Below, one piece after another: positions 25,709 to 26,200 of a stretch of DNA of 32,272 nucleotides (positions are counted from its first letter, which is position 1; the number at the start of each line of letters is the position of its first letter). The stretch is from a virus (Duplodnaviria; Heunggongvirae; Uroviricota; Caudoviricetes): the IMG/VR virus record IMGVR_UViG_2737471827_000002, positions 1 to 32,272 of that record. The stretch is one strand, 5' to 3'. A program made the position numbers and the translations under genes. Below the pieces are notes generated by a model, which saw only the letters and a program-made list of their open reading frames with translations, ran no database searches and was not told the DNA's origin.

Positions 25709-26200
25709 TCACTCTCCTTTGATGCGAATACCAGTGGTACTCATTCTCCTGATTTCCCAGAGCACACGAGGAACACCACCGTTTCCGACTGGATCGCGTT
25801 TACTCCGCAGGGCGACGCTTGATTCCGCCCAGCTTTTTCTTGGAGGAAGCTCTTTCACACGAACAAAACCAGCTGCGCGAAGAGATGCTCCTGATTCATC
25901 TGCCCGGGTGTACGTAATACAACGTTGATAACCCATAGCTTTTGCTGCCCGCCAGACAGCACCATAAAGCGCGCTGTTAGCGTTGCGTTCTCCTGTGGTA
26001 CATGTGCGATTTACTTCAAGCGTTAATCCATCGTCCAAATGTCGTGCAACAGGTCTACCGGCTGTCGCCACACCTATCAATTCTCCGGCATCATTTCTCA
26101 GACCAATGCTGAATTTATGCCCCACCGGGGGTTTATTGTGTCGGTGATGTCTGGATATAAACGCCTTCGCAACACGAAGAGTAACCGGTGAAATCTGCAC
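25709..26200 (-). CDS. Putative GNAT-fold N-acetyltransferase-like protein (about 163 aa, GTG start)
   Basis: ORF track 25709-26239; likely GTG start at 26200 after AAAGGAGAG; ...ALYGAVWRAAKAMGYQRCITYT...SGASLRAAGF resembles the acetyl-CoA-binding core (pattern judgement). Confidence 0.5.
   Translation of the reverse strand: MQISPVTLRVAKAFISRHHRHNKPPVGHKFSIGLRNDAGELIGVATAGRPVARHLDDGLTLEVNRTCTTGERNANSALYGAVWRAAKAMGYQRCITYTRADESGASLRAAGFVRVKELPPRKSWAESSVALRSKRDPVGNGGVPRVLWEIRRMSTTGIRIKGE

Follow-up and report, generated by a model that had tools for sequence, protein, structure and literature searches.

The stretch of DNA analyzed here, a window of 32,272 nucleotides, is a lambdoid prophage whose major genes all lie on the minus strand, as revealed by comparison with annotated prophages, the map of open reading frames (ORFs), and PHROG matches. 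Its layout is as follows:

near 30.7–31.4 kb, minus strand: repressor/cro region, first in transcription order
after repressor/cro in transcription order, minus strand: YdaT-like gene
27.9–30.2 kb, minus strand: replication genes
27340–27855, minus strand: Ren-like exclusion protein (phrog_142, 4.4e-45)
between the Ren-like gene and the hok-like toxin, minus strand: about eight small genes, the XF1762 gene among them
24478–24690, minus strand: Hok/Gef-type type I toxin frame (..MKQQKAMLIALIVICLTVIVTALVTRKDLCEVRIRTGQTEVAVFTAYEPEE); the syntenic gene of a related prophage is annotated hokD
23204–24022, minus strand: predicted membrane protein of 272 aa and unknown function (phrog_3630, 2.9e-92), between hok and DUF968
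after hok in transcription order, minus strand: DUF968, RusA, and Q, then lysis and structural genes
18513–19574, minus strand: N6-adenine DNA methyltransferase of 353 aa with a DPPY motif and partial, below cut-off matches to adenine-specific/CcrM-type NCBIfam models

The gene under study, which encodes a protein of the XF1762 family (described below), is in the nin-like, delayed-early stretch of the rightward operon, between the replication genes and RusA/Q. The first-pass annotation had placed this gene among early genes, and both this position and a related copy in the PL “ea” region of another phage bear that placement out. Its neighbors in the window belong to PHROGs of unknown function. 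The closest annotated prophage segment that was compared lacks the 272-aa membrane protein. The prophage's own methyltransferase gene, 6 kb from the XF1762 gene, has the Q region on one side and the lysis genes on the other.

The gene and its borders comprise the following features:

25709–26200, minus strand: XF1762-family GNAT-fold coding sequence of 163 aa (492 nt), with a GTG start at 26198–26200 and a TGA stop at 25709–25711
26201–26217, minus strand: gene junction, read directly from the sequence, with the end of the upstream ORF (..IKGE, TGA at 26203–26205) and the Shine-Dalgarno sequence GGAG; an exact 15-nt repeat
25701–25737, minus strand: junction repeat copy 1 (..GIRIKGE-stop, with the Shine-Dalgarno sequence that serves the following gene), at the 3′ end of the XF1762 coding sequence
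26195–26231, minus strand: junction repeat copy 2, immediately upstream of the XF1762 coding sequence
25712–25747, minus strand: codons for the non-conserved C-terminal tail RMSTTGIRIKGE (pLDDT <50), absent or variable in homologues

The ORF has exactly the coordinates given by the first-pass annotation, and both the ORF list and direct reading place it on the minus strand. The GGAG Shine-Dalgarno sequence (26208–26211) is located 7 nt 5′ of the GTG start. The upstream gene stops at 26203–26205 and the ATG of the downstream gene (25705–25707) begins one base past the stop of the XF1762 gene; thus, the gene is tightly packed within a chain of small genes and is probably translationally coupled to them. 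A 176-aa reading initiated at TTG (extending to 26239) was rejected, because it overlaps the upstream gene and because the Shine-Dalgarno spacing, the PGAP call, and the alignment of N-termini favor the 163-aa GTG start. PGAP called the same 492-nt, 163-aa coding sequence as “XF1762 family protein” (WP_001167296.1) in a prophage of E. coli with 98% identity across the surrounding 2 kb. Homologues of the protein form 5186 clusters at 90% identity (E ≤ 1e-3) and 3317 clusters at 50% identity, which shows that the ORF is not a chance one; searches of the same database with Mom yielded 852 clusters at 90% identity, so that the XF1762 family is several times the size of Mom proper.

The junction repeat (..GCATCAAAGGAGAGTGA on the coding strand, comprising ..IKGE-stop and the Shine-Dalgarno sequence of the next gene) occurs in three copies, at 25701–25737, 26195–26231, and 27356–27392; it can also be written as a ..GGTATTCGCATCAAAGGAGAGTGA-like sequence on the minus strand that encodes ..GIRIKGE-stop. 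Copies 1 and 2 flank the XF1762 gene, 494 nt apart, and are identical over 15 nt. The disordered, non-conserved 12-residue tail of the XF1762 protein is contributed by this repeat. The C-terminus of the Ren-like protein also reads through a junction repeat, with the usual stop lost (..GIRIKGEEHGNKTRR). The repeat looks like a boundary sequence for cassette exchange in the early regions of lambdoid phages. In the P22-like phage Kapi1 (MT813197.1, positions 4001–4492), a copy of the XF1762 gene with 92% amino acid identity is located in the PL “ea” region, flanked by an Ead/Ea22-like gene and xis, whereas the gene of the window is in the PR nin-like region; the gene is therefore a cassette that moves between early regions, which is consistent with the junction repeats that bracket it. 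Of 5426 complete E. coli genomes, 154 have the gene, UTI89 and 042 among them; of 50,697 deposited phage genomes, only 32 do.

The protein scores 203.7 bits on the NCBIfam model XF1762_fam (NF045478), for which the cut-off is 50, over model positions 2–130 of 143. This is a full-length match, from which the copy in the window differs only by the 12-residue junction-derived tail; gp66 of Burkholderia phage phi1026b is another member of the family. The protein also matches PHROG 1384, “Mom-like DNA modification protein” (E 1.2e-41), which includes Mu Mom (7.9e-84). The only Pfam family matched was Mom (PF25680; E 1.3e-4), with 22.1 bits, below the gathering threshold of 27.1 bits, and over model positions 3–126 of 202 only. 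Precomputed PF25680 matches are present on some close homologues, and 29 of 40 diverse XF1762 members match Pfam Mom at E ≤ 1. No Pfam acetyltransferase family (Acetyltransf_1/3/7/10 and others) was matched by the protein at E ≤ 10 or by any of the 40 diverse members at E ≤ 1. No NCBIfam model matches Mu Mom, and this library is thus unusable to separate Mom from XF1762. The XF1762 family is catalogued and biochemically uncharacterized, and PHROGs put it together with Mom; our literature searches, by the family name or for Mom-like proteins, returned no publication on it.

A model made with AlphaFold2 from 37 homologues (pLDDT 84.5, pTM 0.77) has secondary structure elements in the order of a GNAT core, β1-α-β2-β3-β4-α3-β5-α4-β6-β7. 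In a Foldseek search of the PDB with this model, the crystal structure of Mu Mom (8BV8) took the top two places (E 4.6e-8, TMq 0.70), above hundreds of acetyltransferase structures. The predicted fold is, beyond reasonable doubt, that of a GNAT, as the first-pass annotation had read from the sequence. Searches of the PDB by sequence and by a 37-sequence profile gave chance matches only (E~1) and did not reach Mom 8BV8. The link to Mom needed the fold search, the PHROG and Pfam profiles, and a profile–profile comparison (hhalign) of diverse XF1762 sequences with a Mom alignment, in which 119 columns aligned with E 2e-4 and a probability of 47%. Structure alone does not make the link specific to Mom; its specificity comes from these profiles and from the motifs described below. 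We consider it highly probable that the XF1762 protein is a GNAT-fold homologue of Mom. Because the Pfam match is below threshold and the HTH-like insertion, a defining structural feature of Mom, is missing, we designate the protein a compact Mom-related variant rather than a Mom.

Mom was long regarded as a one-off, a single enzyme that places a bulky adduct on adenine and protects Mu DNA from many restriction systems, and its use of Gly-tRNAGly was demonstrated only in 2023–2026. Mom transfers glycine from Gly-tRNAGly to the N6 of adenine in double-stranded DNA (dsDNA), and the adduct rearranges to 6-NcmdA (Silva et al., PMC13219725). In Mom (241-aa numbering here), R111 and S124 are essential, and H58, Y59, D149, R151, Y159, W48, and W181 matter for activity; the HTH-like insertion between β6 and β7 (~175–209) is indispensable, its deletion abolishing activity, and removal of the first 20 residues reduces activity (PMC13219725). 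The essential arginine (R101 in 231-aa numbering) is conserved among Mom homologues and not across GNATs (Karambelkar et al., PMC7261163). Residues of the XF1762 protein were mapped to those of Mom through alignments that included hhalign, and conservation was counted among the non-gap sequences of 156 representatives of the XF1762 family:

26138–26146, minus strand: codons of H19-R20-H21 (family motif HHRH), conserved in 144/146, 145/146, and 143/145; H19 corresponds to Mom H58, and the near-invariant R20 is a substitution of Mom Y59
26006–26017, minus strand: codons of E62-V-N-R65 at the end of β4, the same pattern as ELNR of Mom; R65 (151/152) corresponds to Mom R111
25973–25984, minus strand: codons of N73-A-N-S76, in the β4-α3 loop and the start of α3, in place of the canonical Q/RxxGxG/A acetyl-CoA loop; N73 (143/153) corresponds to Mom N121 and S76 (147/153) to Mom S124
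25769–25846, minus strand: β6-β7 insertion (residues 119–144; pLDDT 54–62), basic and R/K-rich, with W124 and a conserved R132; W124 (121/128) corresponds tentatively, in a weak part of the alignment, to Mom W181

Both essential catalytic residues of Mom are thus retained in the XF1762 family, as R65 and S76. Mom Y159 is substituted by L107; Mom W48 has no counterpart, the aligned position being R9; and the counterparts of D149 and R151 are ambiguous, in a segment with an indel. Further positions (H21, R49-P50, R53, E62, E102, G104, and S106) are invariant specifically in the XF1762 family.

Comparison between the XF1762 protein and Mu Mom revealed that, in addition to the fold, the structural match, and the PHROG, the 2 proteins share the E-x-N-R motif, the essential Arg and Ser, the His, a high basicity, a β6-β7 insertion with a conserved, tentatively aligned Trp, and an origin in temperate phages. 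The XF1762 protein has a pI of 11.0 and a net charge of +15, and the median pI is 9.7 for the XF1762 family versus 10.0 for Mom homologues. The differences are that (i) the XF1762 protein has 163 aa, compared with 231–241 aa in Mom, and it begins directly at β1, lacking the N-terminal part of roughly 37 residues of Mom; (ii) its β6-β7 insertion, although at the same topological position, has about 26 residues, compared with about 35–45 in Mom, and contains no helix-turn-helix and a single 4-residue helix in this low-confidence part of the AlphaFold2 model; (iii) the equivalents of Y59, Y159, and W48 are substituted, and D149/R151 cannot be aligned with confidence; and (iv) the XF1762 gene is located in an early operon with no com-like regulator, whereas mom is expressed late and under tight control. 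Neither the PHROG match nor the Pfam match reaches the β6-β7 insertion.

The first-pass annotation had described the protein as a GNAT acetyl-CoA-binding core and a candidate acetyltransferase. Of this description, the fold stands, with hundreds of GNAT structures matched; the acetyl-CoA-binding part is unsupported, as the β4-α3 loop has the non-canonical sequence T-G-E-R-N-A-N-S. Over the 156 representatives, the Q/RxxGxG/A pyrophosphate loop is absent: position 72 is unconserved (R in 52, P in 42, and K in 30), and position 75 is C in 77 and N in 55 and is never G. A conventional acetyl-CoA-dependent N-acetyltransferase, acting during infection on a host or phage protein or on a small molecule (for instance, an antibiotic or a polyamine), is therefore unlikely. 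Besides the absence of Pfam acetyltransferase matches and of this loop, the protein has Leu in place of the α4 Tyr, and the arginine that is invariant in the family is the Mom-specific residue and not one general to GNATs. Mu Mom is the only specific relative. Canonical GNATs, such as glyphosate N-acetyltransferase (2BSW), RimI (5ISV), and phosphinothricin acetyltransferase (5T7D), differ from the XF1762 protein in that the latter has no match to their sequence families, no pyrophosphate loop, and no α4 Tyr, is strongly basic, and has the Mom-type Arg. If the protein were an ordinary acetyltransferase after all, the gene would be one more accessory “moron”.

In species-level genomes, 80 loci with XF1762 genes were collected from Enterobacterales, Xanthomonadales, many Streptomyces and other Actinomycetes, Clostridia, Dehalococcoidia, and Cohnella. 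In Streptomyces, a gene for a TraG/VirD4-type coupling protein immediately precedes the XF1762 gene in 37 loci, and further along the same strand come a PAPS-reductase-like gene in 32 loci and a C5 methyltransferase gene in 25, these loci being related elements and not independent counts. The order TraG/VirD4, XF1762, PAPS-reductase-like, and C5 methyltransferase on one strand, with further genes after XF1762, recurs in 4 Streptomyces loci of the collection (L015, L018, L048, and L055) and ~30 others, where the XF1762 match is at 6001–6435. This order suggests that a conjugative element of actinomycetes carries these genes as a block for establishment or anti-restriction. In clostridial loci, a C5 methyltransferase gene overlaps the 3′ end of the XF1762 gene, or an SNF2-N6/N4 methyltransferase gene ends just before it. 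In Burkholderia phage phi1026b (3995–6562 of the locus), gp66 and the DNA methyltransferase gene after it share 4 nt and a ParB-like gene comes next, this compact unit of three genes being located just after cII.

Among cluster representatives, the XF1762 domain is fused to a C5 cytosine DNA methylase, a D12 N6-adenine DNA methyltransferase, a PAPS-reductase domain, DUF6884, YodL and LPD28 polyvalent-protein domains, or a recombinase fragment, and the BFVD entry A0A6J5LU57 is an 877-aa ART-PolyVal fusion with an XF1762 domain; some of these fusions could be gene-calling artefacts. The associations with methyltransferases fit a DNA-modification/anti-restriction module of mobile elements and, together with the very basic pI, point to nucleic acid rather than to the substrates of a conventional acetyltransferase. 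A universal methyltransferase adjacency was considered and rejected, as it is rare in 80 mainly gamma-proteobacterial viral contigs and no methyltransferase gene lies beside the XF1762 gene in the window.

On these grounds, and by analogy with Mom, we tentatively propose that the XF1762 protein acts in a Mom-like manner on phage dsDNA and shields it from restriction. The gene would encode a compact GNAT-fold enzyme (a core of ~150 residues) of a sister family to Mu Mom. Its nin-like, delayed-early position in a lambdoid E. coli prophage, within a string of probably translationally coupled small genes, suggests that the enzyme would be made in lytic growth and not in the lysogen. An active site around R65 and S76, with H19/R20/H21, E62, N73, and E102, would transfer an acyl or aminoacyl group to a nucleobase of the phage dsDNA; the donor, by analogy with Mom, would be an aminoacyl-tRNA; and the basic surface and the basic, Trp-containing β6-β7 insertion would hold the nucleic acid. 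Modified progeny or incoming DNA would then escape host restriction. The anti-defence role that the first-pass annotation had suggested is compatible with such a modification. The parts of this proposal are not equally probable: a nucleic acid substrate is modestly favored, DNA specifically is a more tentative choice that we hold to be quite possible, and an aminoacyl-tRNA donor, which comes from the analogy, is rather doubtful. Our caution on a Mom-like function is due above all to the missing HTH-like insertion and N-terminal segment.

A phage-borne tRNA-Gly was considered as a co-substrate and rejected, because the window contains no tRNA genes. In a related prophage, genes for tRNA-Gly/Thr/Lys/Ile are located downstream of Q and are unlinked to the XF1762 gene.

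The missing HTH-like insertion is also a reason to weigh a different target. A basic protein without the DNA-binding insertion that Mom requires might use a Mom-like active site on RNA, such as tRNA, or on the N-terminus or a side chain of a protein, either as a transferase dependent on aminoacyl-tRNA, in the manner of Fem, L/F-transferase, and MprF enzymes, or as an effector that acetylates tRNA, in the manner of TacT and AtaT, and would then serve host takeover rather than DNA protection. The GNAT scaffold serves several tRNA-dependent or tRNA-targeting enzymes, and tRNA-linked GNATs were used to model the binding of tRNA and DNA by Mom (Silva et al., PMC13219725). FemX (4II9) and other aminoacyl-tRNA-dependent transferases, as well as TacT/AtaT (7F36), resemble the XF1762 protein in having this scaffold, with the CCA end of tRNA as donor or target, and make a plausible parallel for the mechanism of a basic enzyme like Mom. 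One XF1762 member has a marginal, non-significant match to LPG_synthase_C (E 0.13).

Several results make an RNA or protein target improbable. The fusions and neighbors are DNA methyltransferases and not RNA enzymes, and no significant similarity to the TacT, AtaT, or Fem families was detected. A conserved partner gene, either an antitoxin or a Com-like regulator, was also sought and rejected, since the neighbors differ among loci. PADLOC gave no match for the protein and its eight neighbors, and no toxin Pfam family (TacT/AtaT/ItaT) was matched. With neither a PADLOC match nor a conserved partner gene, the toxin role that the first-pass annotation had raised has no support. Mom-like modification of phage DNA remains our preferred reading.

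A degenerate or non-catalytic GNAT-fold protein, either a binding module or a decaying moron without transferase activity, could account for the substitution of several catalytic positions of Mom and of GNATs, for the disordered, junction-derived tail, and for the shuffling of the gene as a cassette between phage regions. Such a protein is very improbable given the conservation of the family: R65, E62, G104, H19, and R20 are each kept in at least 98% of the aligned representatives, about 20 polar or Gly positions are extremely conserved across phyla, and the thousands of family members argue for a constrained active site.

A wider form of the Mom-like reading, which is speculative and which we regard as doubtful, is that XF1762 constitutes a second, minimal, and more abundant Mom-type clade, which would install 6-NcmdA or another aminoacyl or acyl adduct on the DNA of lambdoid E. 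coli prophages (including those of UTI89 and 042) and of conjugative elements of Actinomycetes and Clostridia. If this were true, tRNA-dependent DNA hypermodification would be common and not a peculiarity of Mu. Should the family carry out related chemistry at all, Mom-type modification of DNA (or RNA) would be widespread, reaching conjugative elements as well as the ordinary lambdoid prophages that pathogenic E. coli strains carry, with consequences for restriction evasion, the host range of phages used in therapy, the interpretation of methylomes, and enzyme discovery.

In addition, a structural search of BFVD returned, at ranks 10–28, many myovirus proteins of 400–700 aa annotated as “endonuclease-like” or “homing endonuclease”, each with a domain that superposes on the XF1762 model at E~1e-8, a match quality about equal to that of a phage Mom. 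These proteins include those of Campylobacter phage CP21 and Pseudomonas phage PA5oct. The nuclease-annotated myovirus proteins may thus contain a GNAT/Mom-like domain.
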